From contig CAXHJY010000054.1 of NCBI GenBank assembly GCA_964016885.1, positions 62,001 to 126,000 on the forward strand: a DNA stretch of 64,000 nucleotides, written 5' to 3'. The translations under genes and the position numbers were made by a program. A model generated the notes under the pieces. The model had not been told where the DNA came from. It saw nothing but the letters and a program-made list of their open reading frames with translations, and did no database searches. The DNA is from Eledone cirrhosa. Its lineage: Eukaryota. Below are positions 3,001-64,000 of the stretch, one piece after another. Positions within the stretch are counted from its first letter, which is position 1, and each line of letters begins with the position of its first letter.

Positions 3001-6000
3001 GCTATCCTAAGCTAAGCTAAGCTAAGCTATCCTAAGCTAAGCTAAGCTAAGCTATCCTAAGCTAAGCTAAGCTAAGCTATCCTAAGCTAAGCTAAGCTAT
3101 CCTAAGCTAAGCTAAGCTAAGCTATCCTAAGCTAAGCTAAGCTAAGCTATCCTAAGCTAAGCTAAGCTAAGCTATCCTAAGCTATCCTAAGCTAAGCTAT
3201 CCTAAGCTAAGCTAAGCTAAGCTATCCTAAGCTATCCTAAGCTAAGCTATCCTAAGCTAAGCTAAGCTAAGCTATCCTAAGCTATCCTAAGCTATCCTAA
3301 GCTAAGCTAAGCTAAGCTATCCTAAGCTAAGCTAAGCTAAGCTATCCTAAGCTAAGCTAAGCTAAGCTATCCTAAGCTAAGCTAAGCTATCCTAAGCTAA
3401 GCTAAGCTAAGCTATCCTAAGCTAAGCTAAGCTAAGCTAATCCTAAGCAAGCTATCTAGCTAAGCTAAGCTATCCTAAGCTAAGCTAAGCTAAGCTATCC
3501 TAAGCTAAGCTAAGCTAAGCTATCCTAAGCTAAGCTAAGCTAAGCTATCCTAAGCTAAGCTATCCTAAGCTATCCTAAGCTAAGCTAAGCCTAAGCTAAT
3601 CCTAAGCTAAGCTATCCTAAGCTAAGCTATCCTAAGCTAAGCCTAAGCTATCCTAAGCTAAGCTAAGCTAAGCTTCCTAAGCTAAGCTAAAGCTATCCTA
3701 AGCTAAGCTAAGCTATCCTAAGCTAAGCTAAGCTATCCTAAGCTAAGCTAAGCTAAGCTATCCTAAGCTAAGCTAAGCTAAGCTATCCTAAGCTAAGCTA
3801 AGCTAAGCTATCCTAAGCTATCCTAAGCTATCCTAAGCTAAGCTATCCTAAGCTATCCTAAGCTAAGCTATCCTAAGCTATCCTAAGCTAAGCTAAGCTA
3901 AGCTATCCTAAGCTAAGCTAAGCTAAGCTATCCTAAGCTAAGCTAAGCTAAGCTATCCTAAGCTAAGCTAAGCTAAGCTATCCTAAGCTATCCTAAGCTA
4001 AGCTATCCTAAGCTAAGCTATCTAAGCTATCCTAAGCTAAGCTATCCTAAGCTATCCTAAGCTAAGCTATCCTAAGCTATCCTAAGCTAAGCTATCCTAA
4101 GCTAAGCTATCCTAAGCTATCCTAAGCTAAGCTAAGCTAACCTAAGCTAAGCTATCCTAAGCTAAGGCTAAGCTAAGCTATCCTAAGCTAAGCTAAGCTA
4201 AGCTATCCTAAGCTATCCTAAGCTAAGCTATCCTAAGCTAAGCTCTCCTAAGGCTAAGCTATCCTAAGCTATCCTAAGCTAAGCTATCCTAAGCTATCCT
4301 AAGCTAAGCTAAGCTAAGCTAAGCTAAGCTATCCTAAGCTAAGCTAAGCTACCTAAGCTAAGCTAAGCTAAGCTATCCTAAGCTAAGCTAAGCTAAGCTA
4401 CCTAAGCTAAGCTAAGCTAAGCTTTCCTAAGCTAAGCTAAGCTAAGCTATCCTAAGCTAAGCTAAGCTATCCTAAGCTAAGCTAAGCTAAGCTATCCTAA
4501 GCTAAGCTAAGCTAAGCTATCCTAAGCTAAGCTATCCTAAGCTAAGCTAAGCTAAGCTATCCTAAGCTAAGCTAAGCTAAGCTATCCTAAGCTAAGCTAA
4601 GCTATCCTAAGCTAAGCTAAGCTATCCTAAGCTAGCTAAGCTTAGCTATCCTAAGCTAAGCTAAGCTAAGCTATCCTAAGCTAAGCTAAGCTAAGCTATC
4701 CTAAGCTAAGCTAAGCTAAGCTATCCTAAGCTAAGCTAAGCTATCCTAAGCTATCCTAAGCTAAGCTATCCTAAGCTAAGCTAAGCTATCCTAAGCTAAG
4801 CTAAGCTAAGCTATCCTAAGCTAAGCTAAGCTAAGCTATCCTAAGCTAAGCTATCCTAAGCTATCCTAAGCTAAGCTAAGCTAAGCTAACCTAAGCTAAG
4901 CTATCTAAGCTAAGCTAAGCTAAGCTAACCTAAGCTAAGCTATCTAAGCTAAGCTATCCTAAGCTAAGCTATCCTAAGCTAAGCTATCCTAAGCTATCCT
5001 AAGCTATCTAAGCTAAGCTATCCTAAGCTAAGCTAAGCTATCCTAAGCTAAGCTAAGATAAGCTATCCTAAGCTAAGCTAAGCTAAGCTATCCTAAGCTA
5101 AGCTAAGCTAAGCTATCCTAAGCTAAGCTAGCTAAGCTATCCTAAGCTAAGCTAAGCTATCCTAAGCTAAGCTAAGCTAAGCTATCCTAAGCTAAGCTAA
5201 GCTATCCTAAGCTATCCTATGCTAAGCTATCTAAGCTAAGCTATCCTAAGCTATCCTAAGCTAAGCTATCCTAAGCTATCCTAAGCTAAGCTATCCTAAG
5301 CTATCCTAAGCTAAGCTATCCTAAGCTAAGCTAAGCTAAGCTATCCTAAGCTAAGCTAAGCTAAGCTATCCTAAGCTAAGCTAAGCTATCCTCAGCTAAG
5401 CTAAGCTAAGCTATCCTAAGCTATCCTAAGCTAAGCTATCCTAAGCTATCCTAAGCTAAGCTATCCTAAGCTATCCTAAGCTAAGCTAAGCTAAGCTATC
5501 CTAAGCTAAGCTAAGCTAAGCTAAGCTATCCTAAGCTAAGCTAAGCTAAGCTATCCTAAGCTAAGCTAAGCTAAGCTATCCTAAGCTAAGCTAAGCTATC
5601 CTCAGCTAAGCTAAGCTAAGCTATCCTAAGCTATCCTAAGCTATCCTAAGCTAAGCTATCCTAAGCTAAGCTATCCTAAGCTAAGCTATGCTAAGCTATC
5701 CTAAGCTAAGCTATCCTAAGCTATCCTAAGCTAAGCTAAGCTAAGCTATCCTAAGCTAAGCTAAGCTAAGCTATCCTAAGCTATCTAAGCTAAGCTATCC
5801 TAAGCTAAGCTATCCTAAGCTATCCTAAGCTAAGCTATCCTAAGCTATCCTAAGCTAAGCTATCCTAAGCTAAGCTATCCTAACTAAGCTATCCTAAGCT
5901 ATCCTAAGCTAAGCTATCCTAAGCTATCCTAAGCTAAGCTAAGCTAAGCTATCCTAAGCTAAGCTAAGCTAAGCTATCCTAAGCTAAGCTAAGCTAAGCT

Positions 6001-9000
6001 ATCCTAAGCCTAAGCTAAGCTAAGCTATCCTAAGCTAAGCTAAGCTAAGCTAAGCTAAGCTATCCTAAGCCAAGCTAAGCTAAGCTATCCTAAGCCAAGC
6101 TAAGCTAAGCTAAGCTAAGCTATCCTAAGCTAAGCTATCCTAAGCTAAGCTAAGCTATCCTAAGCTAAGCTAAGCTATCCTAAGCTAAGCTAAGCTAAGC
6201 TATCCTAAGCTAAGCTAAGCTAAGCTATCCTAAGCTAAGCTAAGCTAAGCTATCCTAAGCTAAGCCTAAGCTAAACTATCCTAAGCTAAGCTAAGCTATC
6301 CTAAGCTAAGCTAAGCTAAGCTATCCTAAGCTAAGCTAAGCTTTCCTAAGCTATCCTAAGCTAAGCTATCCTAAGCTAAGCTAAGCTAAGCTATCCTAAG
6401 CTAAGCTAAGCTATCCTAAGCTAAGCTAAGCTAAGCTCCCTAAGCTAAGCTAAGCCTAAGCTATCCTAAGCTAAGCTACGCTAAGCTATCCTAAGCTAAG
6501 CTAAGCTAAGCTATCCTAAGCTAAGCTAAGCTAAACTATCCTAAGCTAAGCTAAGCCATCCTAAGCTAAGCTAAGCTAAGCTATCCTAAGCTAAGCTAAG
6601 CTAAGCTTTCCTAAGCTATCCTAAGCTAAGCTATCCTAAGCTAAGCTAAGCTAAGCTATCCTAAGCTAAGCTAAGCTATCCTAAGCTAAGCTAAGCTAAG
6701 CTATCCTAAGCTATCCTAAGCCCTAAGCTATCCTAAGCTAAGCTATCCTAAGCTAAGCTATCCTAAGCTATTCTAAGCTAAGCTATCCTAAGCTATCCTA
6801 AGCTAAGCTATCCATAAGCTATCCTAAGCTAAGCTAAGCTAAGCTATCCTAAGCTAAGCTAAGCTAAGCTCTCCTAAGCTAAGCTAAGCTAAGCTATCCT
6901 AAGCTAAGCTAAGCTTTCCTAAGCTAAGCTAAGCTAAGCTATCCTAAGCTAAGCTAATCTATCCTAAGCTAAGCTAAGCTAAGCTATCCTAAGCTAAGCT
7001 AAGCTAAGCTATCCTAAGCTAAGCTAAGCTAAGCTATCCTAAGCTAAGCTATCCTAAGCTATCCTAAGCTATCCTAAGCTAAGCTAAGCTAAGCTATCCT
7101 AAGCTAAGCTAAGCTATCCTAAGCTAAGCTAAGCTAAGCTATCCTAAGCTATCCTAAGCTAAGCTAAGCTAAGCTATCCTAAGCTAAGCTAAGCTAAGCT
7201 CTCCTAAGCTAAGCTAAGCTAAGCTATCCTAAGCTAAGCTAAGCTTTCCTAAGCTAAGCTAAGCTAAGCTATCCTAAGCTAAGCTAATCTATCCTAAGCT
7301 AAGCTAAGCTAAGCTATCCTAAGCTAAGCTAAGCTAAGCTATCCTAAGCTAAGCTAAGCTAAGCTATCCTAAGCTAAGCTAAGCTATCCTAAGCTAAGCT
7401 AAGCTAAGCTATCCTAAGCTAAGCTAAGCTAAGCTATCCTAAGCTAAGCTAAGCTAAGCTATCCTAAGCTATCCTAAGCTATCCTAAGCTAAGCTAAGCT
7501 AAGCTATCCTAAGCTAAGCTAAGCTAAGCTATCCTAAGCTAAGCTAAGCTATCCTAAGCTAAGCTAAGCTAAGCTATCCTAAGCTAAGCTAAGCTAATCT
7601 ATCCTAAGCTATCCTAAGCTAAGCTATCCTAAGCTAAGCTAAGCTAAGCTATCCTAAGCTAAGCTAAGCTAAGCTATCCTAAGCTAAGCTAAGCTAAGCT
7701 ATCCTAAGCTAAGCTAAGCTAAGCTATCCTAAGCTAAGCTATCCTAAGCTATCCTAAGCTAAGCTAAGCTAAGCTAACCTAAGCTAAGCTATCCTAAGCT
7801 AAGCTATCCTAAGCTAAGCTATCCTAAGCTAAGCTAAGCTATCCTAAGCTAAGCTAAGCTAAACTATCCTAAGCTAAGCTAAGCTATCCTAAGCTAAGCT
7901 AAGCTAAGCTATCCTAAGCTAAGCTAAGCTAAGCTTTCCTAAGCTATCCTAAGCTAAGCTATCATAAGCTAAGCTAAGCTAAGCTATCCTAAGCTAAGCT
8001 AAGCTATCCTAAGCTAAGCTAAGCTAAGCTATCCTAAGCTAAGCTATCCTAAGCTATCCTAAGCTAAGCTATCCTAAGCTATCCTAAGCTAAGCTATCCT
8101 AAGCTAAGCTATCCTAAGCTAAGCTATTCTAAGCTAAGCTAAGCTAAGCTATCCTAAGCTAAGCTAAGCTATCCTAAGCTAAGCTAAGCTAAGCTATCCT
8201 AAGCTAAGCTAAGCTAAGCTATCCTAAGCTAAGCTAAGCTATCCTAAGCTAAGCTAAGCTAAGCTATCCTAAGCTAAGCTATCCTAAGCTAAGCTAAGCT
8301 AAGCTATCCTAAGCTAAGCTAAGCTAAGCTATCCTAAGCTAAGCTAAGCTAAGCTATCCTAAGCTAAGCTAAGCTATCCTAAGCTAAGCTAAGCTAAGCT
8401 ATCCTAAGCTAAGCTAAGCTATCCTAAGCTATCCTAAGCTAAGCTATCCTAAGCTAAGCTATCCTAAGCTATCCCAAGCTAAGCTATCCTAAGCTAAGCT
8501 AAGCTAAGCTATCCTAAGCTAAGCTATCCTAAGCTATCCTAAGCTAAGCTATCCTAATCTATCCTAAGCTAAGCTATCCTAAGCTATCCTAAGCTAAGCT
8601 ATCCTAAGCTATGCTAAGCTAAGCTAAGCTATCCTAAGCTATCCTAAGCTAAGCTATCCTAAGCTAAGCTATCGTAAGCTAAGCTATCCTAAGCTATCCT
8701 AAGCTAAGCTATCCTAAGCTATCCTAAGCTAAGCTATCCTAAGCTATCCTAAGCTAAGCTAAGCTAAGCTATCCTAAGCTAAGCTAAGCTAAGCTCTCCT
8801 AAGCTAAGCTAAGCTAAGCTATCCTAAGCTAAGCTAAGCTTTCCTAAGCTAAGCTAAGCTAAGCTATCCTAAGCTAAGCTAAGCTAAGCTATCCTAAGCT
8901 AAGCTAAGCTAAGCTATCCTAAGCTAAGCTAAGCTAAGCTATCCTAAGCTAAGCTAAGCTAAGCTATCCTAAGCTAAGCTAAGCTATCCTAAGCTAAGCT

Positions 9001-12000
9001 AAGCTAAGCTATCCTAAGCTAAGCTAAGCTAAGCTATCCTAAGCTAAGCTAAGCTAAGCTATCCTAAGCTATCCTAAGCTATCCTAAGCTAAGCTAAGCT
9101 AAGCTATCCTAAGCTAAGCTAAGCTATCCTAAGCTAAGCTAAGCTAAGCTATCCTAAGCTAAGCTAAGCTATCCTAAGCTAAGCTAAGCTAAGCTATCCT
9201 AAGCTAAGCTAAGCTATCCTAAGCTATCCTAAGCTAAGCTATCCTAAGCTAAGCTAAGCTAAGCTATCCTAAGCTAAGCTAAGCTAAGCTATCCTAAGCT
9301 AAGCTAAGCTAAGCTATCCTAAGCTAAGCTAAGCTAAGCTATCCTAAGCTAAGCTATCCTAAGCTATCCTAAGCTAAGCTAAGCTAAGCTAACCTAAGCT
9401 AAGCTATCCTAAGCTAAGCTATCCTAAGCTAAGCTATCCTAAGCTAAGCTAAGCTAAGCTATCCTAAGCTAAGCTAAGCTAAGCTATCCTAAGCTAAGCT
9501 AAGCTATCCTATCCTAAGCTAAGCTAAGCTAAGCTATCCTAAGCTAAGCTAAGCTATCCTAAGCTAAGCTAAGCTAAGCTATCCTAAGCTAAGCTAAGCT
9601 AAGCTATCCTAAGCTAAGCTAAGCTAAGCTATCCTAAGCTATCCTAAGCTAAGCTATCCTAAGCTATCCTAAGCTAAGCTATCCTAAGCTAAGCTATCCT
9701 AAGCTATCCTAAGCTAAGCTATCCTAAGCTATCCTAAGCTAAGCTATCCTAAGCTATGCTATCCTAAGCTAAGCTATCCTAAGCTATCCTAAGCTAAGCT
9801 ATCCTAAGCTAAGCTCTCCTAAGGTAAGCTATCCTAAGCTATCCTAAGCTAAGCTATCCTAAGCTATCCTAAGCTAAGCTAAGCTAAGCTCTCCTAAGCT
9901 AAGCTAAGCTAGGCTATCCTAAGCTAAGCTAAGCTAAGCTAAGCTAAGCTATCCTAAGCTAAGCTAAGCTAAGCTTACCTAAGCTAAGCTAAGCTAAGCT
10001 ATCCTAAGCTAAGCTAAGCTAAGCTATCCTAAGCTAAGCTAAGCTAAGCTATCCTAAGCTAAGCTAAGCTAAGCTATCCTAAGCTAAGCTAAGCTATCCT
10101 AAGCTAAGCTAAGCTAAGCTATCCTAAGCTAAGCTAAGCTATCCTAAGCTAAGCTAAGCTAAGCTATCCTAAGCTATCCTAAGCTATCCTAAGCTAAGCT
10201 AAGCTAAGCTATCCTAAGCTAAGCTAAGCTAAGCTATCCTAAGCTAAGCTAAGCTATCCTAAGCTAAGCTAAGCTAAGCTATCCTAAGCTAAGCTAAGCT
10301 AAGCAATCCTAAGCTATCCTAAGCTAAGCTATCCTAAGCTAAGCTAAGCTAAGCTAAGCTAAGCTATCCTAAGCTAAGCTATCCTAAGCTATCCTAAGCT
10401 AAGCTAAGCTAAGCTAACCTAAGCTAAGCTATCCTAAGCTAAGCTATCCTAAGCTAAGCTATCCTAAGCTAAGCTAAGCTAAGCTATCCTAAGCTAAGCT
10501 AAGCTAAGCTATCCTAAGCTAAGCTAAGCTATCCTAAGCTAAGCTAAGCTAAGCTATCCTAAGCTAAGCTAAGCTAAGCTATCCTAAGCTAAGCTAAGCT
10601 ATCCTAAGCTAAGCTAAGCTAAGCTATCCTAAGCTAAGCTAAGCTAAGCTATCCTAAGCTATCCTAAGCTAAGCTATCCTAAGCTAAGCTATCCTAAGCT
10701 ATCCTAAGCTAAGCTATCCTAAGCTATCCTAAGCTAAGCTATCCTAAGCTAAGCTAAGCTAAGCTATCCTAAGCTAAGCTATCCTAAGCTAAGCTATCCT
10801 AAGCTATTCTAAGCTAAGCTATCCTAAGCTATCCTAAGCTAAGCTATCCTAAGCTATCCTAAGCTAAGCTATCCTAAGCTATCCTAAGCTAAGCTAAGCT
10901 ATCCTAAGCTAAGCTAAGCTAAGCTAAGCTATCCTAAGCTAAGCTAAGCTAAGCTATCCTAAGCTAAGCTAAGCTAAGCTATCCTAAGCTATCCTAAGCT
11001 AAGCTATCCTAAGCTAAGCTATCCTAAGCTATCCTAAGCTAAGATATCCTAAGCTATCCTAAGCTAAGCTATCCTAAGCTAAGCTATCCTAAGCTAAGCT
11101 ATCCTAAGCTATCCTAAGCTAAGCTATCCTAAGCTATCCTAAGCTAAGCTAAGCTAAGCTATCCTAAGCTAAGCTAAGCTAAGCTATCCTAAGCTAAGCT
11201 AAGCTAAGCTTTCCTAAGCTATCCTAAGCTAAGCTATCCTAAGCTAAGCTATCCTAAGCTATCCTAAGCTAAGCTATCCTAAGCTATCCTAAGCTAAGCT
11301 ATCCTAAGCTATCCTAAGCTAAGCTATCCTAACCTAAGCTATCCTAAGCTATCCTAAGCTAAGCTATCCTAAGCTATTCTAAGCTAAGCTAAGCTAAGCT
11401 ATCCTAAGCTAAGCTAATCTATCCTAAGCTAAGCTAAGCTAAGCTATCCTAAGCTAAGCTAAGCTAAGCTATCCTAAGCTAAGCTAAGCTAAGCTATCCT
11501 AAGCTAAGCTAAGCTAAGCTAAGCTATCCTAAGCTAAGCTAAGCTATCCTAAGCTATCCTAAGCTAAGCTAAGCTAAGCTATCCTAAGCTAAGCTAAGCT
11601 AAGCTATCCTAAGCTAAGCTAAGCTAAGCTATCCTAAGCTAAGCTAAGCTATCCTAAGCTAAGCTAAGCTAAGCTATCCTAAGCTAAGCTAAGCTATCCT
11701 AAGCTAAGCTAAGCTAAGCTATCCTAAGCTAAGCTAAGCTAAGCTATCCTAAGCTAAGCTAAGCTAAGCTATCCTAAGCTAAGCTATCCTAAGCTAAGCT
11801 AAGCTAAGCTAAGCTAACCTAAGCTAAGCTATCCTAAGCTAAGCTAAGCTAAGCTATCCTAAGCTAAGCTAAGCTAAGCTATCCTAAGCTAAGCTATCCT
11901 AAGCTAAGCTATCCTAAGCTAAGCTATCCTAAGCTATCCTAAGCTAAGCTATCCTAAGCTAAGCTCTCCTAAGGTAAGCTATCCTAAGCTATCCTAAGCT

Positions 12001-15000
12001 AAGCTATCCTAAGCTATCCTAAGCTAAGCTAAGCTAAGCTCTCCTAAGCTAAGCTAAGCTAAGCTATCCTAAGCTAAGCTAAGCTAAGCTAAGCTAAGCT
12101 AAGCTATCCTAAGCTAAGCTAAGCTAAGCTACCTAAGCTAAGCTAAGCTAAGCTAAGCTAAGCTAAGCTAAGCTATCCTAAGCTAAGCTAAGCTTTCCTA
12201 AGCTAAGCTAAGCTAAGCTATCCTAAGCTAAGCTAATCTATCCTAAGCTAAGCTAAGCTAATCTATCCTAAGCTAAGCTAAGCTAATCTATCCTAAGCTA
12301 AGCTAAGCTAAGCTATCCTAAGCTAAGCTAAGCTATCCTAAGCTAAGCTAAGCTAAGCTATCCTAAGCTATCCTAAGCTATCCTAAGCTAAGCTAAGCTA
12401 AGCTATCCTAAGCTAAGCTAAGCTAAGCTATCCTAAGCTAAGCTAAGCTAAGCTATCCTAAGCTAAGCTAAGCTATCCTAAGCTAAGCTAAGCTATCCTA
12501 AGCTATCCTAAGCTATCCTAAGCTAAGCTAAGCTAAGCTATCCTAAGCTAAGCTAAGCTAAGCTAAGCTATCCTAAGCTAAGCTAAGCTATCCTAAGCTA
12601 AGCTAAGCTATCCTAAGCTAAGCTAAGCTAAGCTATCCTAAGCTAAGCTAAGCTAAGCAATCCTAAGCTAAGCTAAGCTAAGCTATCCTAAGCTAAGCTA
12701 AGCTAAGCTAAGCTATCCTAAGCTAAGCTAAGCTAAGCTATGCTAAGCTAAGCTAAGCTATCCTAAGCTAAGCTATCCTAAGCTATCCTAAGCTAAGCTA
12801 AGCTAAGCTAACCTAAGCTAAGCTATCCTAAGCTAAGCTATCCTAAGCTAAGCTATCCTAAGCTAAGCTAAGCTAAGCTATCCTAAGCTAAGCTAAGCTA
12901 AGCTATCCTAAGCTAAGCTAAGCTAAGCTAAGCTAAGCTATCCTAAGCTAAGCTAAGCTATCCTAAGCTAAGCTAAGCTAAGCTATCCTAAGCTAAGCTA
13001 AGCTAAGCTATCCTAAGCTAAGCTAAGCTATCCTAAGCTAAGCTAAGCTAAGCTATCCTAAGCTAAGCTAAGCTAATCTATCCTAAGCTAAGCTATCCTA
13101 AGCTAAGCTATCCTAAGCTATCCTAAGCTAAGCTATCCTAAGCTATCCTAAGCTAAGCTAAGCTATCCTAAGCTAAGCTAAGCTAAGCTAAGCTATCCTA
13201 AGCTATCCTAAGCTAAGCTAAGCTAAGCTATCCTAAGCTATCCTAAGCTAAGCTATCCTAAGCTAAGCTATCCTAAGCTAAGCTATCCTAAGCTATCCTA
13301 AGCTATCCTAAGCTAAGCTATCCTAAGCTATCCTAAGCTAAGCTAAGCTAAGCTATCCTAAGCTAAGCTAAGCTAAGCTATCCTAAGCTAAGCTAAGCTA
13401 AGCTTTCCTAAGCTATCCTAAGCTAAGCTATCCTAAGCTAAGCTATCCTAAGCTATCCTAAGCTATCCTAAGCTAAGCTATCCTAACCTATGCTATCCTA
13501 AGCTATCCTAAGCTAAGCTATCCTAAGCTATCCTAAGCTAAGCTATCCTAAGCTATCCTAAGCTAAGCTAAGCTAAGCTATCCTAAACTAAGCTAAGCTA
13601 TCCTAAGCTAAGCTAAGCTAAGCTATCCTAAGCTAAGCTAAGCTAAGCTATCCTAAGCTAAGCTAAGCTAAGCTATCCTAAGCCAAGCTAAGCTATCCTA
13701 AGCTAAGCTTTCCTAAGCTATCCTAAGCTAAGCTATCCTAAGCTAAGCTAAGCTATCCTAAGCTAAGCTAAGCTAAGCTATCCTAAGCTAAGCTATCCTA
13801 AGCTATCCTAAGCTAAGCTATCCTAAGCTAAGCTATCCTAAGCTAAGCTATTCTAAGCTAAGCTAAGCTAAGCTAAGCTATCCTAAGCTAAGCTAAGCTA
13901 AGCTATCCTAAGCTAAGCTAAGCTAAGCTATCCTAAGCTAAGCTAAGCTAAGCTATCCTAAGCTAAGCTAAGCTAAGCTATCCTAAGCTAAGCTAAGCTA
14001 AGCTATCCTAAGCTAAGCTATCCTAAGCTAAGCTAAGCTAAGCTATCCTAAGCTAAGCTAAGCTAAGCTATCCTAAGCTAAGCTATCCTAAGCTATCCCA
14101 AGCTAAGCTATCCTAAGCTAAGCTAAGCTAAGCTATCCTAAGCTAAGCTATCCTAAGCTAAGCTATCCTAATCTATCCTAAGCTAAGCTAAGCTAAGCTA
14201 AGCTATCCTAAGCTAAGCTAAGCTATCCTAAGCTAAGCTATCCTAAGCTAAGCTAAGCTAAGCTAAGCTATCCTAAGCTATCCTAAGCTAAGCTATCCTA
14301 AGCTAAGCTATCCTAAGCTATCCTAAGCTAAGCTATCCTAAGCTAAGCTAAGCTAAGCTATCCTAAGCTAAGCTATCCTAAGCTAAGCTATCCTAAGCTA
14401 TCCTAAGCTAAGCTATCCTAAGCTAACCTAAGCTAAGCTATCCTAAACTATCCTAAGCTAAGCTATCCTAAGCTATCCTAAGCTAAGCTAAGCTAAGCTA
14501 TCCTAAGCTAAGCTAAGCTAAGCTATCCTAAGCTAAGCTAAGCTAAGCTAAGCTATCCTAAGCTAAGCTAAGCTAAGCTATCCTAAGCTAAGCTAAGCTA
14601 AGCTATCCTAAGCTATCCTAAGCTAAGCTATCCTAAGCTATCCTAAGCTAAGCTATCCTAAGCTATCCTAAGCTAAGCTAACCTAAGCTAAGCTATCCTA
14701 AGCTATCCTAAGCTAAGCTAAGCTAAGCTATCCTAAGCTAAGCTAAGCTAAGCTATCCTAAGCTAAGCTAAGCTAAGCTATCCTAAGCTAAGCTAAGCTA
14801 AGCTTTCCTAAGCTATCCTAAGCTAAGCTATCCTAAGCTAAGCTATCCTAAGCTATCCTAAGCTAAGCTATCCTAAGCTAAGCTATCCTAAGCTAAGCTA
14901 ACCTAAGCTATCCTAAGCTAAGCTATCCTAAGCCATCCTAAGCTAAGCTATCCTAAGCTATCCTAAGCTAAGCTAAGCTAAGCTATCCTAAACTAAGCTA

Positions 15001-34000: not shown

Positions 34001-34199
34001 CTAAGCTAAGCTAAGCTATCCTAAGCTATCCTAAGCTAAGCTATCCTAAGCTAAGCTATCCTAAGCTAAGCTATCCTAAGCTATCCTAAGCTAAGCTATC
34101 CTAAGCTAAGCTCTCCTAAGGTAAGCTATCCTAAGCTAAGCTATCCTAAGCTAAGCTATCCTAAGCTATCCTAAGCTAAGCTAAGCTAAGCTATCCTAA

Positions 34200-36469: not shown

Positions 36470-36483
36470 AGCTATAGCTTAGG
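36460..36483. other. Palindrome axis / strand-switch junction, CCTAAGCTATAG|CTATAGCTTAGG, centre between 36471 and 36472, no spacer
   Basis: Checked base by base: 36460-36471 is the exact reverse complement of 36472-36483. It contains (AGCTAT)2AGCT at 36464-36479, which breaks the pentamer pattern. Confidence 0.97.
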
Positions 36484-51400: not shown

Positions 51401-53820
51401 CTTGGCTTAGCTTAGGATAGCTTAGCTTAGCTTAGCTTAGGATAGCTTAGCTTAGCTTAGCTTAGGATAGCTTAGCTTAGTTTAGGATAGCTTAGCTTAG
51501 CTTAGCTTAGGATAGCTTAGCTTAGCTTGGCTTAGGATAGCTTAGCTTAGCTTAGCTTAGGATAGCTTAGCTTAGCTTAGGATAGCTTAGGATAGCTTAG
51601 CTTAGGATAGCTTTGGATAGCTTAGCTTAGGATAGCTTAGCTTAGGATAGCTTAGCTTAGGATAGCTTAGGATATCTTAGCTTAGGATAGCTTAGCTTAG
51701 GATAGCTTAGGATAGCTTAGCTTAGCTTAGGATAGCTTAGCTTAGCTTAGCTTAGGATAGTTTAGCTTAGCTTAGCTTAGCTTAGGATAGCTTAGCTTAG
51801 CTTAGCTTAGCTTAGGATAGCTTAGCTTAGCTTAGCTTAGGATAGCTTAGGATAGCTTAGCTTAGGATAGCTTAGCTTAGGATAGCTTAGCTTAGCTTAG
51901 CTTAGGTTAGCTTAGCTTAGGATAGCTTAGGATAGCTTAGCTTAGGATAGCTTAGCTTAGGATAGCTTAGGATAACTTAGCTTAGCTTAGCTTAGGATAG
52001 CTTAGCTTAGCCTAGCTAAGGATAGCTTAGCTTAGCTTAGGATAGCTTAGCTTAGCTTAGCTTAGGATAGCTTAGCTTAGCTTAGCTTAGCTTAGGATAG
52101 CTTAGCTTAGCTTAGGATAGCTTAGGATAGCTTAGGATAGCTTAGCTTAGCTTAGCTTAGGATAGCTTAGCTTAGCTTAGCTTAGGATAGCTTAGCTTAG
52201 CTTAGCTTAGAATAGCTTAGCTTAGCTTAGGATAGCTTAGCTTAGCTTAGCTTAGGATAGCTTAGCTTAGCTTAGCTTAGGATAGCTTAGCTTAGCTTAG
52301 CTTAGGATAGCTTAGCTTAGCTTAGGATAGCTTAGCTTAGCTTAGCTTAGGATAGCTTAGCTTAGCTTAGCTTAGGATAGCTTAGCTTAGCTTAGGATAG
52401 CTTAGCTTAGCTTAGCTTAGGATAGCCTAGCTTAGCTTAGCTTAGGATAGCTTAGCTTAGCTTAGCTTAGGATAGCTTAGCTTAGCTTAGCTTAGGATAG
52501 CTTAGCTTAGCTTAGCTTAGGATAGCTTAGCTTAGCTTAGCTTAGCATAGCTTAGCTTAGCATAGCTTAGCTTAGCTTAGCTTAGGATAGCTTAGCTTAG
52601 CTTAGCTTAGGAGAGCTTAGCTTAGCTTAGCTTAGGATAGCTTAGCTTAGCTTAGCTTAGGAGAGCTTAGCTTAGCTTAGCTTAGGATAGCTTAGCTTAG
52701 CTTAGCTTAGGATAGCTTAGCTTAGCTTAGCTTAGGATAGCTTAGCTTAGCTTAGCTTAGGATAGCTTAGCTTAGGATAGCTTAGCTTAGCTTAGCTTAG
52801 TATAGCTTAGCTTAGCTTAGCTTAGGATAGCTTAGCTTAGGATAGCTTAGCTTAGGATAGCTTAGCTTAAGATAGCTTAGGATAGCTTAGCTTAGGATAG
52901 CTTAGGATAGCTTAGCTTAGGATAGCTTAGCTTAGCTTAGCTTAGGATAGCTTAGCTTAGCTTAGCTTAGGATAGATTAGCTTAGCTTGGCTTAGGATAG
53001 CTTAGCTTAGCTTTGCTTAGGATAGCCTAGCTTAGCTTAGCTTAGGATGGCTTAGCTTAGATTAGCTTAGGATAGCTTAGCTTAGCTTAGCTTAGGATAG
53101 CTTAGCTTAGTTTAGGATAGCTTAGCTTAGCTTAGCTTAGCTTAGGATAGCTTAGGATAGCTTAGCTTAGGATATCTTAGGATAGCTTAGCTTAGGATAG
53201 CTTAGGATAGCTTAGCTTAGGATAGCTTAGCTTAGGTTAGCTTAGGATAGCTTAGCTTAGGATAGCTTAGGATAGCTTAGCTTAGGATAGCTTAGGATAG
53301 CTTAGCTTAGGATAGCTTAGCTTAGGATAGCTTAGGAAAGCTTAGCTTAGCTTAGCTTAGGATAGCTTAGCTTAGCTTAGCTTAGGATAGCTTAGCTTAG
53401 CTTAGCTTAGGATAGCTTAGGATAGCTTAGCTTAGGATAGCTTAGCTTAGGTTAGCTTAGCTTAGGATAGCTTAGGATAGCTTAGCTTAGGATAGCTTAG
53501 CTTAGGATAGCTTAGGATAGCTTAGCTTAGCTTAGCATAGGATAGCTTAGCTTAGCTTAGCTTAGGATAGCTTAGCTTAGCTTAGCTTAGCTTAGGATAG
53601 CTTAGCTTAGCTTAGCTTAGGATAGCTTAGGATAGCTTAGCTTAGGATAGTTTAGGATAGCTTAGCTTAGGATAGCTTAGGATAGCTTAGGATAGCTTAG
53701 CTTAGGATAGCTTAGCTTAGGCTAGCTTAGCTTAGCTTAGCTTAGGATAGCTTAGCTTAGGATAGCTTAGGATAGCTTAGCTTAGGATAGCTTAGCTTAG
53801 GATAGCTTAGGATAGCTTAG

Positions 53821-56800
53821 ATTAGCTTAGGATAGCTTAGCTTAGCTTAGGATAGCTTAGCTTAGCTTAGGATAGCTTAGCTTAGCTTAGCTTAGGATAG
53901 CTTAGGATAGCTTAGCATAGGAGAGCTTAGCTTAGCTTAGCTTAGGATAGCTTAGCTTAGCTTAGCTTAGCTTAGGATAGCTTAGCTTAACTTAGCTTAG
54001 GATAGCTTAGCTTAGCTTAGCTTAGGATAGCTTAGCTTAGCTTAGCTTAGGATAGCTTAGCTTAGCTTAGGATAGCTTAGCTTAGCTTAGCTTAGGATAG
54101 CTTAGCTTAGCTTAGCTTAGGATAGCTTAGCTTAGCTTAGCTTAGGATAGCTTAGCTTAGCTTAGCTTAGGATAGCTTAGCTTAGCTTAGCTTAGGATAG
54201 CTTAGCTTAGCTTAGCTTAGGATAGCTTAGCTTAGCTTAGCTTAGCATAGCTTAGCTTAGCTTAGCTTAGGATAGCTTAGCTTAGCTTAGCTTAGGAGAG
54301 CTTAGCTTAGCTTAGCTTAGGATAGCTTAGCTTAGCTTAGCTTAGGAGAGCTTAGCTTAGCTTAGCTTAGGATAGCTTAGCTTAGCTTAGCTTAGGATAG
54401 CTTAGCTTAGCTTAGCTTAGGATAGCTTAGCTTAGCTTAGCTTAGGATAGCTTAGCTTAGCTTAGCTTAGCTTAGGATAGCTTAGCTTAGCTTAGCTTAG
54501 TATAGCTTAGCTTAGCTTAGCTTAGGATAGCTTAGCTTAGGATAGCTTAGCTTAGGATAGCTTAGCTTAAGATAGCTTAGGATAGCTTAGCTTAGGATAG
54601 CTTAGGATAGCTTAGCTTAGGATAGCTTAGCTTAGCTTAGCTTAGGATAGCTTAGCTTAGCTTAGCTTAGGATAGATTAGCTTAGCTTGGCTTAGGATAG
54701 CTTAGCTTAGCTTTGCTTAGGATAGCCTAGCTTAGCTTAGCTTAGGATGGCTTAGCTTAGCTTAGCTTAGGATAGCTTAGCTTAGCTTAGCTTAGGATAG
54801 CTTAGCTTAGTTTAGGATAGCTTAGCTTAGCTTAGCTTAGCTTAGGATAGCTTAGGATAGCTTAGCTTAGGATATCTTAGGATAGCTTAGCTTAGGATAG
54901 CTTAGGATAGCTTAGCTTAGGATAGCTTAGCTTAGCTTAGCTTAGCTTAGCTTAGGATAGATTAGCTTAGCTTGGCTTAGGATAGCTTAGCTTAGCTTTG
55001 CTTAGGATAGCCTAGCTTAGCTTAGCTTAGGATGGCTTAGCTTAGCTTAGCTTAGGATAGCTTAGCTTAGCTTAGCTTAGGATAGCTTAGCTTAGTTTAG
55101 GATAGCTTAGCTTAGCTTAGCTTAGCTTAGGATAGCTTAGGATAGCTTAGCTTAGGATATCTTAGGATAGCTTAGCTTAGGATAGCTTAGGATAGCTTAG
55201 CTTAGGATAGCTTAGCTTAGGTTAGCTTAGGATAGCTTAGCTTAGGATAGCTTAGGATAGCTTAGCTTAGGATAGCTTAGGATAGCTTAGCTTAGGATAG
55301 CTTAGCTTAGGATAGCTTAGGAAAGCTTAGCTTAGCTTAGCTTAGGATAGCTTAGCTTAGCTTAGCTTAGGATAGCTTAGCTTAGCTTAGCTTAGGATAG
55401 CTTAGGATAGCTTAGCTTAGGATAGCTTAGCTTAGGTTAGCTTAGCTTAGGATAGCTTAGGATAGCTTAGCTTAGGATAGCTTAGCTTAGGATAGCTTAG
55501 GATAGCTTAGCTTAGCTTAGCATAGGATAGCTTAGCTTAGCTTAGCTTAGGATAGCTTAGCTTAGCTTAGCTTAGCTTAGGATAGCTTAGCTTAGCTTAG
55601 CTTAGGATAGCTTAGGATAGCTTAGCTTAGGATAGTTTAGGATAGCTTAGCTTAGGATAGCTTAGGATAGCTTAGGATAGCTTAGCTTAGGATAGCTTAG
55701 CTTAGGATAGCTTAGCTTAGCTTAGCTTAGGATAGCTTAGCTTAGGATAGCTTAGGATAGCTTAGCTTAGGATAGCTTAGCTTAGGATAGCTTAGCTTAG
55801 CTTAGGATAGCTTAGCTTAGCTTAGGATAGCTTAGCTTAGCTTAGGATAGCTTAGCTTAGCTTAGCTTAGGATAGCTTAGGATAGCTTAGCTTAGGAGAG
55901 CTTAGCTTAGCTTAGCTTAGGATAGCTTAGCTTAGCTTAGCTTAGCTTAGGATAGCTTAGCTTAACTTAGCTTAGGATAGCTTAGCTTAGCTTAGCTTAG
56001 GATAGCTTAGCTTAGCTTAGCTTAGGATAGCTTAGGATAGCTTAGGATAGCTTACCTTAGGAGAGCTTAGCTTAGGATAGCTTAGCTTAGGATAGCTTAG
56101 GATAGCTTAGCTTAGGATAGCTTAGCTTAGGATAGCTTAGCTTAGCTTAGCTTAGGATAGCTTAGCTTAGCTTAGCTTAGGATAGCTTAGCTTAGCTTAG
56201 CTTAGGATAGCTTAGGATAGCTTAGCTTAGGATAGCTTAGGATAGCTTAGCTTAGGATAGCTTAGGATAGCTTAGCTTAGGATAGCTTAGGATAGCTTAG
56301 CTTAGGATAGCTTAGGATAGCTTAGCTTAGGATAGCTTAGCTTAGGATAGCTTAGCTTAGCTTAGCTTAGGATAGCTTAGCTTAGCTTAGCTTAGGATAG
56401 ATTAGCTTAGCTTGGCTTAGGATAGCTTAGCTTAGCTTTGCTTAGGATAGCCTAGCTTAGCTTAGCTTAGGATGGCTTAGCTTAGCTTAGCTTAGGATAG
56501 CTTAGCTTAGCTTAGCTTAGGATAGCTTAGCTTAGTTTAGGATAGCTTAGCTTAGCTTAGCTTAGCTTAGGATAGCTTAGGATAGCTTAGCTTAGGATAT
56601 CTTAGGATAGCTTAGCTTAGGATAGCTTAGGATAGCTTAGCTTAGGATAGCTTAGCTTAGGTTAGCTTAGGATAGCTTAGCTTAGGATAGCTTAGGATAG
56701 CTTAGCTTAGGATAGCTTAGGATAGCTTAGCTTAGGATAGCTTAGCTTAGGATAGCTTAGGAAAGCTTAGCTTAGCTTAGCTTAGGATAGCTTAGCTTAG

Positions 56801-56950
56801 CTTAGCTTAGGATAGCTTAGCTTAGCTTAGCTTAGGATAGCTTAGGATAGCTTAGCTTAGGATAGCTTAGCTTAGGTTAGCTTAGCTTAGGATAGCTTAG
56901 GATAGCTTAGCTTAGGATAGCTTAGCTTAGGATAGCTTAGGATAGCTTAG
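53821..56950 (-). repeat. Right-arm-specific ~3.13-kb expansion made of re-copied pieces of the neighbouring array
   Basis: The mirror sum jumps from 72938 to 76068. The insert holds three extra copies of the landmark block ATTAG..CTTGG..CTTTG..CCTAG..GATGG..TTTAG..GATAT (starting ~54676, ~54961, ~56401; collinear copy at ~52976). Breakpoints are approximate. Confidence 0.85.
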
Positions 56951-59900
56951 CTTAGCTTAGCATAGGATAGCTTAGCTTAGCTTAGCTTAGGATAGCTTAG
57001 CTTAGCTTAGCTTAGCTTAGGATAGCTTAGCTTAGCTTAGCTTAGCTTAGGATAGCTTAGCTTAGGATAGTTTAGGATAGCTTAGCTTAGGATAGCTTAG
57101 GATAGCTTAGGATAGCTTAGCTTAGGATAGCTTAGCTTAGGATAGCTTAGCTTAGCTTAGCTTAGGATAGCTTAGCTTAGGATAGCTTAGGATAGCTTAG
57201 CTTAGGATAGCTTAGCTTAGCTTAGGATAGCTTAGCTTAGCTTAGGATAGCTTAGCTTAGCTTAGGATAGCTTAGCTTAGCTTAGCTTAGGAGAGCTTAG
57301 CTTAGCTTAGCTTAGGATAGCTTAGCTTAGCTTAGCTTAGCTTAGGATAGCTTAGCTTAACTTAGCTTAGGATAGCTTAGCTTAGCTTAGCTTAGGATAG
57401 CTTAGCTTAGCTTAGCTTAGGATAGCTTAGGATAGCTTAGGATAGCTTACCTTAGGAGAGCTTAGCTTAGGATAGCTTAGCTTAGGATAGCTTAGGATAG
57501 CTTAGCTTAGGATAGCTTAGCTTAGGATAGCTTAGCTTAGCTTAGCTTAGGATAGCTTAGCTTAGCTTAGCTTAGGATAGCTTAGCTTAGCTTAGCTTAG
57601 GATAGCTTAGGATAGCTTAGCTTAGGATAGCTTAGGATAGCTTAGCTTAGGATAGCTTAGGATAGCTTAGCTTAGGATAGCTTAGGATAGCTTAGCTTAG
57701 GATAGCTTAGCTTAGGATAGCTTAGCTTAGCTTAGCTTAGGATAGCTTAGCTTGGGATAGCTTAGGATAGCTTAGCTTAGGATAGCTTAGGATAGCTTAG
57801 CTTAGGATAGATTAGGATAGCTTAGCTTAGGATAGCTTAGGATAGCTTAGCTTAGGATAGCTTAGCTTAGGATAGCTTAGCTTAGCTTAGCTTAGGATAG
57901 CTTAGCTTGGGATAGCTTAGGATAGCTTAGCTTAGGATAGCTTAGGATAGCTTAGCTTAGCTTAGCTTAGGATAGCTTAGTTTAGCTTAGCTTAGGATAG
58001 CTTAGCTTAGCTTAGGATAGCTTAGCTTAGCTTAGCTTAGGATAGCTTAGCTTAGCTTAGCTTAGGATAGCTTAGCTTAGCTTAGCTTAGGATAGCTTAG
58101 CTTAGCATAGCTTAGCTTAGGATAGCTTAGCTTAGGATAGCTTAGCTTAGGATAGCTTAGGATAGCTTAGCTTAGGATAGCTTAGCTTAGGATAGCTTAG
58201 CTTAGCTTAGCTTAGGATAGCTTAGCTTAGCTTAGGATAGCTTAGCTTAGGATAGCTTAGCTTAGGATAGCTTAGGAAAGCTTAGCTTAGGATAGCTTAG
58301 CTTGGCTTAGGATAGCTTAGCTTAGCTTAGGATAGCTTAGCTTAGCTTAGCTTAGGATAGCTTAGCTTAGCTTAGCTTAGCTTAGGATAGCTTAGCTTAG
58401 GATAGCTTAGCTTAGGATAGCTTAGCTTAAGATAGCTTAGGATAGCTTAGCTTAGGATAGCTTAGGATAGCTTAGCTTAGGATAGCTTAGCTTAGCTTAG
58501 CTTAGCTTAGCTTAGCTTGGCTTAGGATAGCTTAGCTTAGCTTGGCTTAGGATAGCTTAGCTTAGCTTTGCTTAGGATAGCCTAGCTTAGCTTAGCTTAG
58601 GATGGCTTAGCTTAGCTTAGCTTAGGATAGCTTAGCTTAGCTTAGCTTAGGATAGCTTAGCTTAGTTTAGGATAGCTTAGCTTAGCTTAGCTTAGGATAG
58701 CTTAGCTTAGCTTGGCTTAGGATAGCTTAGCTTAGCTTAGCTTAGGATAGCTTAGCTTAGGATAGCTTAGCTTAGGATAGCTTAGGATAGCTTAGCTTAG
58801 GATAGCTTAGCTTAGGATAGCTTAGGACAGCTTAGCTTAGGATAGCTTAGGATAGCTTAGCTTAGGATAGCTTAGGATAGCTTAGCTTAGCTTAGCTTAG
58901 GATAGCTTAGCTTAGCTTAGCTTAGGATAGCTTAGGATAGCTTAGCTTAGGATAGCTTTGGATAGCTTAGCTTAGGATAGCTTAGCTTAGGATAGCTTAG
59001 CTTAGGATAGCTTAGGATAGCTTAGCTTAGGATAGCTTAGGATATCTTAGCTTAGGATAGCTTAGCTTAGGATAGCTTAGGATAGTTTAGCTTAGCTTAG
59101 GATAGCTTAGCTTAGCTTAGCTTAGGATAGCTTAGCTTAGCTTAGCTTAGGATAGCTTAGGATAGCTTAGCTTAGGATAGCTTAGCTTAGGATAGCTTAG
59201 CTTAGGATAGCTTAGGTTAGCTTAGGATAGCTTAGCTTAGGATAGCTTAGCTTAGGATAGCTTAGGATAGCTTAGCTTAGCTTAGCTTAGGATAGCTTAG
59301 CTTAGCTAAGGATAGCTTAGCTTAGCTTAGGATAGCTTAGCTTAGCTTAGCTTAGGATAGCTTAGCTTAGCTTAGCTTAGGATAGCTTAGCTTAGCTTAG
59401 CTTAGGATAGCTTAGCTTAGGATAGCTTAGCTTAGGATAGCTTAGCTTAGGATAGCTTAGGATAGCTTAGCTTAGCTTAGCTTAGGATAGCTTAGCTTAG
59501 CTTAGCTTAGCTTAGGATAGCTTAGCTTAGCTTAGGATAGCTTAGCTTAGCTTAGCTTAGGATAGCTTAGCTTAGGATAGCTTAGGATAGCTTAGCTTAG
59601 CTTAGCTTAGCTTAGCTTAGCTTAGGATAGCTTAGCTTAGCTTAGCTTAGGATAGCTTAGCTTAGCTTAGCTTAGGATAGCTTAGCTTAGCTTAGGATAG
59701 CTTAGCTTAGCTTAGCTTAGGATAGCTTAGCTTAGCTTAGCTTACGATAGCTTAGCTTAGCTTAGCTTAGGATAGCTTAGCTTAGCTTAGCTTAGGATAG
59801 CTTAGCTTAGCTTAGCTTAGCATAGCTTAGCTTAGCTTAGCTTAGGATAGCTTAGCTTAGCTTAGCTTAGGATAGCTTAGCTTAGGATAGCTTAGCTTAG

Positions 59901-62900
59901 GATAGCTTAGCTTAGGATAGCTTAGGATAGCTTAGTTTAGCTTAGCTTAGGATAGCTTAGCTTAGCTTAGGATAGCTTAGCTTAGCTTAGCTTAGGATAG
60001 CTTAGCTTAGCTTAGGATAGCTTAGGATAGCTTAGCTTAGGATAGCTTAGGATAGCTTAGCTTAGGATAGCTTAGCTTAGGATAGCTTAGCTTAGGATAG
60101 CTTAGGATAGCTTAGCTTATCTTAGGATAGCTTAGGATAGCTTAGCTTAGGATAGCTTAGGATAGCTTAGCTTAGCTTAGCTTAGGATAGCTTAGCTTAG
60201 CTTAGCTTTGGATAGCTTAGCTTAGCTTAGCTTAGGATAGCTTAGCTTAGCTTAGCTTAGCTTAGGATAGCTTAGGATAGCTTAGCTTAGGTTAGCTTAG
60301 GATAGCTTAGCTTAGGATAGCTTAGGATAGCTTAGGATAGCTTAGCTTGGGATAGCTTAGCTTAGGACAGCTTAGCTTAGGATAGCTTAGGTTAGCTTAG
60401 GATAGCTTAGCTTAGGATAGCTTAGGATAGCTTAGGATAGCTTAGCTTAGGATAGCTTAGCTTAGCTTAGCTTAGGATAGCTTAGCTTAGCTTAGCTTAG
60501 GAGAGCTTAGCTTAGCTTAGGATAGCTTAGCTTAGGATAGCTTAGCTTAGCTTAGCTTAGGATAGCTTAGCTTAGCTTAGGATAGCTTAGCTTAGCTTAG
60601 CTTAGGATAGCTTAGCTTAGCTTAGGATAGCTTAGCTTAGGATAGCTTAGCTTAGGATAGCTTAGCTTAGGATAGCTTAGGATAGCTTAGCTTAGGATAG
60701 CTTAGCTTAGGATAGCTTAGGATAGCTTAGCTTAGGATAGCTTAGCTTAGCTTAGCTTAGGATAGCTTAGCTTAGCTTAGCTTAGGATAGCTTAGCTTAG
60801 GATAGCTTAGGATAGCTTAGCTTAGCTTAGCTTAGGATAGCTTAGCTTAGCTTAGCTTAGGATAGCTTAGCTTAGCTTAGCTCAGGATAGCTTAGCTTGG
60901 GATAGCTTATCTTAGCTTAGCTTAGGATAGCTTAGCTTAGGATAGCTTAGCTTAGCTTAGCTTAGGATAGCTTAGCTTAGCTTGGCTTAGGATAGCTTAG
61001 CTTAGCTTAGGATAGCCTAGCTTAGCTTAGCTTAGGATGGCTTAGCTTAGCTTAGCTTAGGATAGCTTAGCTTAGTTTAGGATAGCTTAGCTTAGCTTAG
61101 CTTAGGATAGCTTAGGATAGCTTAGCTTAGGATGGCTTAGGATAGCTTAGCTTAGGATAGCTTAGGTTAGCTTAGCTTAGGATAGCTTAGCTTAGGATAG
61201 CTTAGCTTAGGATAGCTTAGGATAGCTTAGCTTAGGATAGCTTAGCTTAGGATAGCTTAGGAAAGCTTAGCTTAGCTTAGCTTAGGATAGCTTAGCTTAG
61301 CTTAGCTTAGGATAGCTTAGCTTAGCTTAGCTTAGGATAGCTTAGCTTAGCTTAGCTTAGGATAGCTTAGGATAGCTTAGCTTAGGTTAGCTTAGCTTAG
61401 GATAGCTTAGGATAGCTTAGCTTAGGATAGCTTAGGATAGCTTAGCTTAGGATAGCTTAGGATAGCTTAGCTTAGCTTAGCTTAGGATAGCTTAGCTTAG
61501 CTTAGCTTAGGATAGCTTAGCTTAGCTTAGCTTAGCTTAGGATAGCTTAGCTTAGCTTAGCTTAGGATAGCTTAGCTTAGCTTAGCTTAGGATAGCTTAG
61601 GATAGCTTAGCTTAGGATAGTTTAGGATAGCTTAGCTTAGGTTAGCTTAGGATAGCTTAGCTTAGGATAGCTTAGGATAGCTTAGCTTAGGATAGCTTAG
61701 CTTAGGATAGCTTAGCTTAGCTTAGCTTAGGATAGCTTAGCTTAGGATAGCTTAGGATAGCTTAGCTTAGGATAGCTTAGCTTAGGATAGCTTAGGATAG
61801 CTTAGCTTAGCTTAGCTTAGCTTAGGATAGCTTAGCTTAGGATAGCTTAGCTTAGCTTAGGATAGCTTAGCTTAGCTTAGCTTAGCTTAGGATAGATTAG
61901 GATAGCTTAGCTTAGGATAGCTTAGCTTAGGATAGCTTAGCTTAGCTTAGCTTAGGATAGCTTAGCTTGGGATAGCTTAGGATAGCTTAGCTTAGGATAG
62001 CTTAGCTTAGCTTAGCTTAGGATAGCTTAGCTTAGCTTAGCTTAGGATAGCTTAGCTTAGGATAGCTTAGCTTAGCTTAGCTTAGGATAGCTTAGCTTAG
62101 CTTAGCTTAGGATAGCTTAGCTTAGCTTAGCTTAGGATAGCTTAGCTTAGCTTAGCTTAGGATAGCTTAGCTTAGCTTAGCTTAGGATAGCTTAGCTTAG
62201 CTTAGCTTAGCTTAGAATAGCTTAGCTTAGGATAGCTTAGCTTAGGATAGCTTAGCTTAGGATAGCTTAGGATAGCTTAGCTTAGGATAGCTTAGCTTAG
62301 CTTAGCTTAGGATAGCTTAGCTTAGCTTAGGATAGCTTAGCTTAGGATAGCTTAGGAAAGCTTAGCTTAGGATAGCTTAGCTTGGCTTAGGATAGCTTAG
62401 CTTAGCTTAGCTTAGGATAGCTTAGCTTAGCTTAGCTTAGGATAGCTTAGCTTAGCTTAGCTTAGGATAGCTTAGCTTAGTTTAGGATAGCTTAGCTTAG
62501 CTTAGCTTAGGATAGCTTAGGATAGCTTAGCTTAGGATAGCTTAGGATAGCTTAGCTTAGGATAGCTTAGGATAGCATAGGTTAGGATAGCTTAGCTTAG
62601 GATAGCTTAGGATAGCTTAGGATAGCTTAGCTTAGGATAGCTTAGCTTAGGATAGCTTAGGAAAGCTTAGCTTAGCTTAGCTTAGGATAGCTTAGCTTAG
62701 CTTAGCTTAGGATAGCTTAGCTTAGCTTAGCTTAGGATAGCTTAGGATAGCTTAGCTTAGGATAGCTTAGGATAGCTTAGGATAGCTTAGCTTAGGATAG
62801 CTTAGCTTAGGATAGCTTAGCTTAGGATAGCTTAGGATAGCTTAGCTTAGCTTAGCTTAGGATAGCTTAGGATAGCTTAGCTTAGCTTAGCTTAGCTTAG

Positions 62901-63005
62901 GATAGCTTAGCTTAGCTTAGGATAGCTTAGGATAGCTTAGCTTAGGATAGCTTAGGATAGCTTAGCTTAGGATAGCTTAGCTTAGGATAGATTAGCTTAG
63001 CTTAG
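56951..63005 (-). repeat. Outer inverted-repeat segment, reverse complement of ~13063-19117
   Basis: Sum 76068 holds for CTATG 19103 / CATAG 56961, CTCTC 18773 / GAGAG 57291, GTAAG 16323 / CTTAC 59741, CTGTC 15698 / GACAG 60366, CTGAG 15183 / CTCAG 60881, CTAAT 13073 / ATTAG 62991. Confidence 0.93.
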
Positions 63006-64000
63006 GATAGCTTAGCTTAGCTTAGCTTAGGATAGCTTAGCTTAGGATAGCTTAGGAAAGCTTAGCTTAGCTTAGGATAGCTTAGCTTAGCTTAGCTTAG
63101 GATAGCTTAGCTTAGCTTAGGATAGTTTAGCTTAGCTTAGCTTAGGATAGCTTAGCTTAGCTTAGCTTAGGATAGCTTAGCTTAGCTTAGCTTAGGATAG
63201 CTTAGCTTAGCTTAGCTTAGGATAGCTTAGCTTAGCTTAGGATAGCTTAGCTTAGCTTAGGATAGCTTAGCTTAGGATAGCTTAGCTTAGCTTAGCTTAG
63301 CTTGGCTTAGGATAGCTTAGCTTAGCTTGGCTTAGGATAGCTTAGCTTAGCTTAGCTTAGCTTAGCTTAGGATAGCTTAGCTTAGCTTGGCTTAGGATAG
63401 CTTAGCTTAGCTTAGCTTAGGATAGCTTAGCTTAGCTTAGCTTAGGATAGCTTAGCTTAGCTTAGCTTAGGATAGCTTAGGATAGCTTAGCTTAGGATAG
63501 CTTAGGATAGCTTAGGTTAGGATAGCTTAGCTTAGGATAGCTTAGCTTAGGATAGCTTAGGATAGCTTAGCTTAGGATAGCTTAGGATAGCTTAGCTTAG
63601 GATAGCTTAGCTTAGGATAGCTTAGGATAGCTTAGCTTAGCTTAGCTTAGGATAGCTTAGCTTAGCTTAGCTTAGGATAGCTTAGGATAGCTTAGCTTAG
63701 GATAGCTTAGCATAGCTTAGCTTAGGATAGCTTAGCTTAGGATAGCTTAGCTTAGGATAGCTTAGGATAGCTTAGGATAGCTTAGCTTAGCTTAGCTGAG
63801 GATAGCTTAGCTTAGCTTAGGATAGCTTAGCTTAGCTTAGCTTAGGATAGCTTAGCTTAGCTTAGCTTAGGATAGCTTAGCTTAGCTTAGCTTAGCTTAG
63901 GATAGCTTAGCTTAGCTTAGCTTAGGATAGCTTAGGATAGCTTAGCTTAGGATAGCTTAGGATAGCTTAGCTTAGGATAGCTTAGGATAGCTTAGCTTAG
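63006..64000 (-). repeat. Outermost visible inverted-repeat segment, reverse complement of ~5401-6395
   Basis: Sum ~69401 holds for CTTTC 6341 / GAAAG 63056, CTAAA 6271 / TTTAG 63126, CCAAG 6070 and 6095 / CTTGG 63326 and 63301, CTATG 5686 / CATAG 63711, CTCAG 5601 / CTGAG 63796. Confidence 0.88.

Follow-up and report, generated by a model that had tools for sequence, protein, structure and literature searches.

At 36471/36472 of the window (the whole 64,000-nt stretch analyzed here), a satellite array reverses direction and continues as its own mirror copy. Folded at this point, the sequence has 0 mismatches over 13,984 bp per arm (22488-36471 against 36472-50455), and 97 of the 97 non-canonical units within the arm block are mirrored, whereas the longest exact direct repeat in the left arm, taken as a control, is 788 bp. 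It follows that one arm was copied from the other. Inside the left arm the longest exact inverted match, our second control, is 16 bp, and chance or two merely opposed arrays can be ruled out (13,984 bp against 788 bp). The initial annotation had placed an orientation switch at this position, with unit order and rare variants mirrored, one arm copied and no spacer at the center, and each of these points is borne out: the 10-mer unit and its reverse complement occur 1740:0 to the left of the switch and 0:1333 to its right, and the center contains no spacer and no foreign or adapter bases.

1..36469, + strand: left array, an aperiodic mix of GCTAA and GCTATCCTAA with the C-rich strand on +, extending past the window start
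36474..64000, - strand: right array, the units of the left array, reversed
22488..50455, no strand: perfect palindrome, 27,968 bp in total, 13,984 bp per arm, 0 mismatches

The same annotation left a choice between a real fold-back or fusion product and an artefact, and we judge this to be the right choice. Read from the sequence, the chances appear evenly balanced that the junction was made in a cell, the satellite array having been joined head to head to its own mirror copy. Such odds are a judgment and were not computed, and, pending a check of the raw reads, an artefact is almost as likely as a cellular origin. An inherited junction is a tentative but substantial possibility; a rare somatic molecule taken up by the assembler seems quite unlikely.

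TRF describes the whole 64-kb window as one satellite from end to end. The left array holds 3290 pentamers (GCTAA), 1741 decamers (GCTATCCTAA) and 309 variant tokens, and the right array holds 2439, 1334 and 244, respectively. Base composition flips at ~36.5 kb, and no open reading frame of at least 60 aa is present anywhere in the window. Pentamer runs, which self-pair at four bases in five, account for 37% of the left arm. The hairpins that the array can form are not unusually stable, because five single-strand folds of the native strand came out no stronger than shuffled sequence (z between -1.48 and +2.77). Its ungapped self-complementarity is only 36%, and it is high only in AGCT density, at 141 per kb or about one every 7 bases.

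The otherwise aperiodic array has a loose higher-order structure. The inner arm (25877-30848 and its mirror) contains a 788-bp exact direct duplication at a shift of ~4.18 kb (a5623-6411 against a9807-10595); this is the commonest long shift, and we read this direct duplication as recent. Shorter periods of ~0.3 and 1.4-1.7 kb also occur. The G-rich strand of the decamer contains TTAGG, which the accessible text of PMC13421425 gives as the canonical arthropod telomere motif, and given this motif the satellite may be telomere-derived. Tandem TTAGG is essentially absent from the arms, with CCTAACCTAA found once per arm. A telomere-telomere fusion was rejected as an identity for the junction: the + strand runs from C-rich to G-rich, the opposite order, and each arm has one tandem CCTAA pair. 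A literature search by repeat unit, covering titles and the starts of abstracts, showed no paper naming the satellite among the matches listed, and a check of PMC13717174 likewise came up empty. A 35-bp satellite motif had 0 matches among metagenome and prokaryote contigs, where a eukaryote satellite is not expected.

36470..36473, no strand: tip, AGCT between two native ends finishing in GCTAT, with the dyad axis at 36471/36472

At the tip, the canonical units continue until two bases short of the axis. The central 40 bases comprise 18 + 18 native bases and 4 non-native ones (AGCT), which amounts to a 6-bp gain relative to a simple fusion at AT. The 24-bp junction (words TATAGCTATA) occurs once in the window, allowing up to 2 mismatches, and has 0 matches among metagenome and viral contigs, where again a eukaryote satellite is not expected. 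Seventeen 31-mers are specific to the junction. A search of sequencing runs with 36380-36501, for which 5 words were sampled, found some of the words in 20 of the 24 rows, with a best value of 0.80 and none at 1.0; these values speak neither for nor against the junction, and the one uncoded row name, 'marine metagenome', is no guide to organism or habitat.

This anatomy suggests how the junction could have been made in a cell. A break just after GCTAT, followed by replication, would leave two identical sister 3' ends, which could anneal by their terminal AT, a self-complementary dinucleotide, and then each gain four templated bases (AGCT). Were the ends then to separate and re-pair through the new AGCT, fill-in would yield exactly the symmetric tip that is observed; the off-center opening of a hairpin is an alternative route that would yield the identical product. 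With AGCT words so closely spaced, the satellite would invite joining of this kind. As far as the available text of PMC8034613 goes, microhomology and templated insertion are signatures of TMEJ (polymerase-theta joining), and the tip would fit the templated-insertion pattern of polymerase-theta-type joining, a fit that is suggestive only. The argument from the tip draws on homologies of 2 and 4 bp, both of which are frequent in this sequence, and the insertion, at 4 nt that the flank can template, is too short for diagnosis in an AGCT-rich array.

A one-step snap-back would not be expected to produce this tip. After the tip flank, the native spacers between AGCT words are A, AAGCTA, ATCCTA or longer, and never the observed eight bases, and the predicted native-strand hairpin has a 6-nt loop, so a one-step snap-back would leave a spacer. 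Likewise unsupported was the idea that the symmetric tip arose when a native loop and its reverse complement were merged into one consensus. We mixed native tips 50:50 with their reverse complements, using the 5 commonest native spacers at 5 error settings each; the observed tip was the best template in 0 of the 25 cases and ranked 8-45 of about 150 for two 6-nt loops. Among 100 simulated 10-read strand-mixed consensuses, 30 of them unparseable, the observed tip appeared in none (0/100). Under these error models, which are generic and not those of real base-callers, a strand-mixed origin of the tip appears weakened.

Farther from the axis the mirror is interrupted. Anchoring on unique words found four mirror blocks, the first being the perfect palindrome, which is bounded outward by a 5-bp unit indel. 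The features of the outer arms, from the center outward, are as follows.

19118..22495, + strand (right copy 50443-53820): mirror block 2, after the 5-bp unit indel, with one substitution at 20459/52479
53821..56950, - strand: right-only block of 3,130 bp, built from diverged local copies 1.4-1.7 kb apart
13063..19190, + strand (right copy 56878-63005): mirror block 3, with one substitution at 15768/60300
6396..13062, + strand: left-only block of 6,667 bp, without a close copy in the right arm
5401..6409, + strand (right copy 62992-64000): mirror block 4, 1,009 bp, with four one-base indels
2801..6850, + strand: noisy block, with 22 private frame-shifting variants, 5.4 per kb

A giant palindrome had initially been annotated over 5401-64000, with arms matchable out to the window edge. 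The arms do align that far (62992-64000 matches 5401-6409 with a local score of 1008, the best non-overlapping place reaching 798), but the palindrome is perfect only in its inner 27,968 bp. Under the definition of a perfect palindrome given in the accessible part of PMC7999016 (identical arms, no spacer), 22488-50455 is one and 5401-64000 as a whole is not.

Substitutions between the arms are limited to 2 in 24,418 shared bp (0.008%). Both (20459 and 15768) have the variant in the left arm and the canonical base in the right; the variant at 20459 recurs elsewhere in the same 41-bp context, which is conversion-like, and that at 15768 is private. The 3,130-bp block was probably deleted from the left version, because it consists of diverged local copies and its breakpoints share 73 bp, a homology of at least that length occurring in 2.3% of random in-phase pairs; when its six tiles are aligned to the left arm, they reach 404-495 of 500. 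The 6,667-bp block has a breakpoint homology of 14 bp, which is at chance level (at least 14 bp in 55% of random in-phase pairs), and all 13 of its tiles reach 350-405 of 500 when compared with the right arm. Because each arm has a kilobase block absent from the other, the arms, judged by their sequence, do not represent a single molecule sequenced twice over the full length, and the outer arms therefore derive from distinct molecules.

We counted five arm differences, namely, the 5-bp unit, the two substitutions and the 3,130-bp and 6,667-bp blocks. The four one-base indels of mirror block 4 were left out because they fall in the noisy block and are probable errors. All five differences lie beyond 13,984 bp of the 24,418 shared bases; under uniform placement, P is 0.014 for the first gap and 0.085 for a gap that large anywhere. 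A distance of ~14 kb is about one HiFi read. Three histories fit the pattern: one bridging molecule, after which the sequence switches to a near-identical second copy; a real fusion that is young and includes the same kind of switch; or homogenization from the center outward.

The first of these fits belongs to a reading in which a fold-back read bridged a coverage gap and the assembler entered on one copy and left on a near-identical second one, a reading that we hold to be credible at slightly less than even weight. The fold-back would have come from a library or amplification hairpin or from nanopore sequencing, and the true array would continue past 36471 elsewhere. The confinement of the differences beyond 14 kb speaks for it. 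Since a plain single-read fold-back cannot explain the whole span in the face of the reciprocal blocks, the artefact needs a second haplotype or copy, and that copy would have to be only 0.008% divergent. Of the marks of a fold-back read, a strand switch within at most 200 bp of the same position is seen at distance 0 in the assembled sequence, a single-molecule origin of the two arms holds no farther than 13,984 bp, and a tip consisting of a native loop, an adapter remnant or, under the generic error models, a strand-mixed consensus is not what we find.

The noisy block bears on the same question from the side of assembly quality. Private frame-shifting variants number 0 outside it (1-2800, 6851-13062 and 13063-36460), with the recurrent GCTACCTAA allele excluded from the count. 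Within it, nearly all private errors are one-base indels, and only 1 type of in-frame variant is not seen in the right arm. The block is probably one uncorrected read, and its variants (2801-6850), set between clean flanks, are not to be taken as biology. Indel-dominated errors are typical of PacBio HiFi, and the private error profile looks more like HiFi than nanopore. Because the contig seems to run through an uncorrected read at 2.8-6.8 kb, the block suggests that thinly supported reads were accepted nearby. It therefore cuts both ways, the HiFi-like errors disfavoring a fold-back and the thin read support favoring an artefact.

Published work weighs on both sides as well. In the available portion of PMC12870357, fold-back reads make up ~0.55-0.6% of nanopore genomic reads, some of them without middle sequence, which favors an artefact; they are virtually absent from its HiFi data (of only three PacBio samples, one was HiFi genomic), which counts against one. 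Whole-genome amplification yields palindromic reads (PMC6218980, as excerpted), instability is expected of perfect spacer-less palindromes (PMC7999016, as excerpted), and the satellite is predicted to be able to form AGCT-stacked hairpins, all of which lend weight to the artefact. Against it stand a tip that is not a one-step product and that strand mixing, with generic error models, failed to reproduce, the lack of an adapter remnant at the center, and the need for chimera filtering to have failed. Assemblers normally filter chimeras.

If the junction was instead made in a cell, the outer differences could be later changes in each arm, or they could mark a switch to a near-identical second copy beyond ~14 kb, whether by crossover or by the assembler. 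A 15-kb transgene palindrome in mice reportedly underwent rapid central rearrangement. According to the accessible text of PMC7999016, no kind of palindrome is less stable than one with long, identical arms and no spacer, and such instability speaks against great age in a palindrome whose center is untouched. An old palindrome would need time for five changes with its center intact. The restriction of differences to the region beyond 14 kb and the noisy block that resembles a single read count against a stable chromosomal feature. An unlikely variant is that a natural, inherited, perfect and spacer-less palindrome with 14-kb arms persists in this quasi-self-complementary satellite by resetting itself, arm-to-arm copying proceeding from the center outward after the tip breaks. 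Resetting of this kind would preserve the tip and the innermost 14 kb without change and would let the outer arms drift by kilobase indels.

Readings other than a junction made in a cell or an artefact are, even in combination, improbable. One of them had also been raised at first as one form of a real product: the window would hold the junction or replicated dimer of a linear molecule with hairpin ends, be it a satellite fragment outside the chromosomes or linear DNA of organellar or viral type. Replication through a sealed hairpin gives a spacer-less dyad, the outcome found here, and in each arm the G-rich strand points away from the center, as it would in a linear molecule. A replication dimer would, however, have identical arms, and these differ by kilobase blocks; the window offers no open reading frame of at least 60 aa for a replicon, and the lack of tandem TTAGG tracts, with one CCTAACCTAA per arm, is a further point against such a molecule. 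We regard the dimer of a hairpin-ended replicon as very unlikely, given 0 such frames and unequal arms.

Least probable of all is that the satellite family has an old inversion site, repeated and spread as a cassette like the macro-dyads of Tribolium, with arms alike only as stretches of the same satellite. In the accessible text of PMC13081366, orientation switches in Tribolium satellite arrays are confirmed on raw HiFi reads and create potential hairpins of tens of kilobases, and our window shares with them an orientation switch within one satellite array. The same text describes degenerate inversion units repeated thousands of times with variable arm lengths, whereas this window has a single junction in 64 kb, identical arms and, in place of inversion units that are 10-23% degenerate, canonical units up to two bases from the axis. 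Base-for-base copying over 13,984 bp, against a best direct repeat of 788 bp, refutes the part of this reading that concerns the arms, and mirror copying of that kind was not found described for Tribolium in the portion of PMC13081366 at hand. That portion states that satellite macro-dyads had previously been documented only in Tribolium.

Among known systems, the junction works like a fold-back or sister-fusion palindrome. The fold-back duplications, sister-chromatid fusions and breakage-fusion-bridge products of PMC7999016 and PMC8034613 (both as available in part) would resemble it in being large mirror duplications started by a break, with short central homology and templated insertion. 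The snap-back events cited there use inverted repeats of 5-9 bp and spacers of 3-12 bp, whereas here there is no spacer and only pure satellite. Fold-back read artefacts (PMC12870357) and amplification palindromes (PMC6218980), again from partial texts, share the near-perfect mirror, which is sometimes spacer-less; in a fold-back read, as PMC12870357 describes it, both arms come from one molecule, whereas the outer arms here carry reciprocal kilobase indels.

Inverted triplications at Aspergillus centromeres (10.1101/2025.01.14.632981, accessible part) provide a model for the version with a rare somatic molecule: there, in heterochromatic simple DNA, individual long reads show rare inverted junctions placed at short palindromes. 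Those events have two switches and are described as transient, whereas this window has one switch. Cichlid centromeres, in the available text of PMC13652916, also have oppositely oriented satellite blocks, but these are organized round 15-kb non-satellite centroids, of which the window has none. Fold-back work on Bradysia was set aside; it is about polytene contacts and is unrelated.

What follows depends on where the molecule exists. If native chromosomes contain it, they carry a perfect palindrome of 28 kb with no spacer, a structure expected to break and rearrange fast, and satellite heterochromatin would have to tolerate or regenerate such palindromes. The junction would then be a base-level record of a satellite array flipping its orientation, and if it is inherited and self-resetting, it could mark the center of an isochromosome or an iso-B-type chromosome. 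If it is an artefact, self-complementary satellites can yield mirrored mis-joins between near-identical copies, and in assemblies such mis-joins would mimic real centromeric inversions. Direct tests are possible, as the tip has a unique restriction site and unique junction words. The window contains only two CTRYAG sites, at 36466 and 36472, where ~475 would be expected from shuffles; both are at the tip, and the pair provides a handle for a Southern test.
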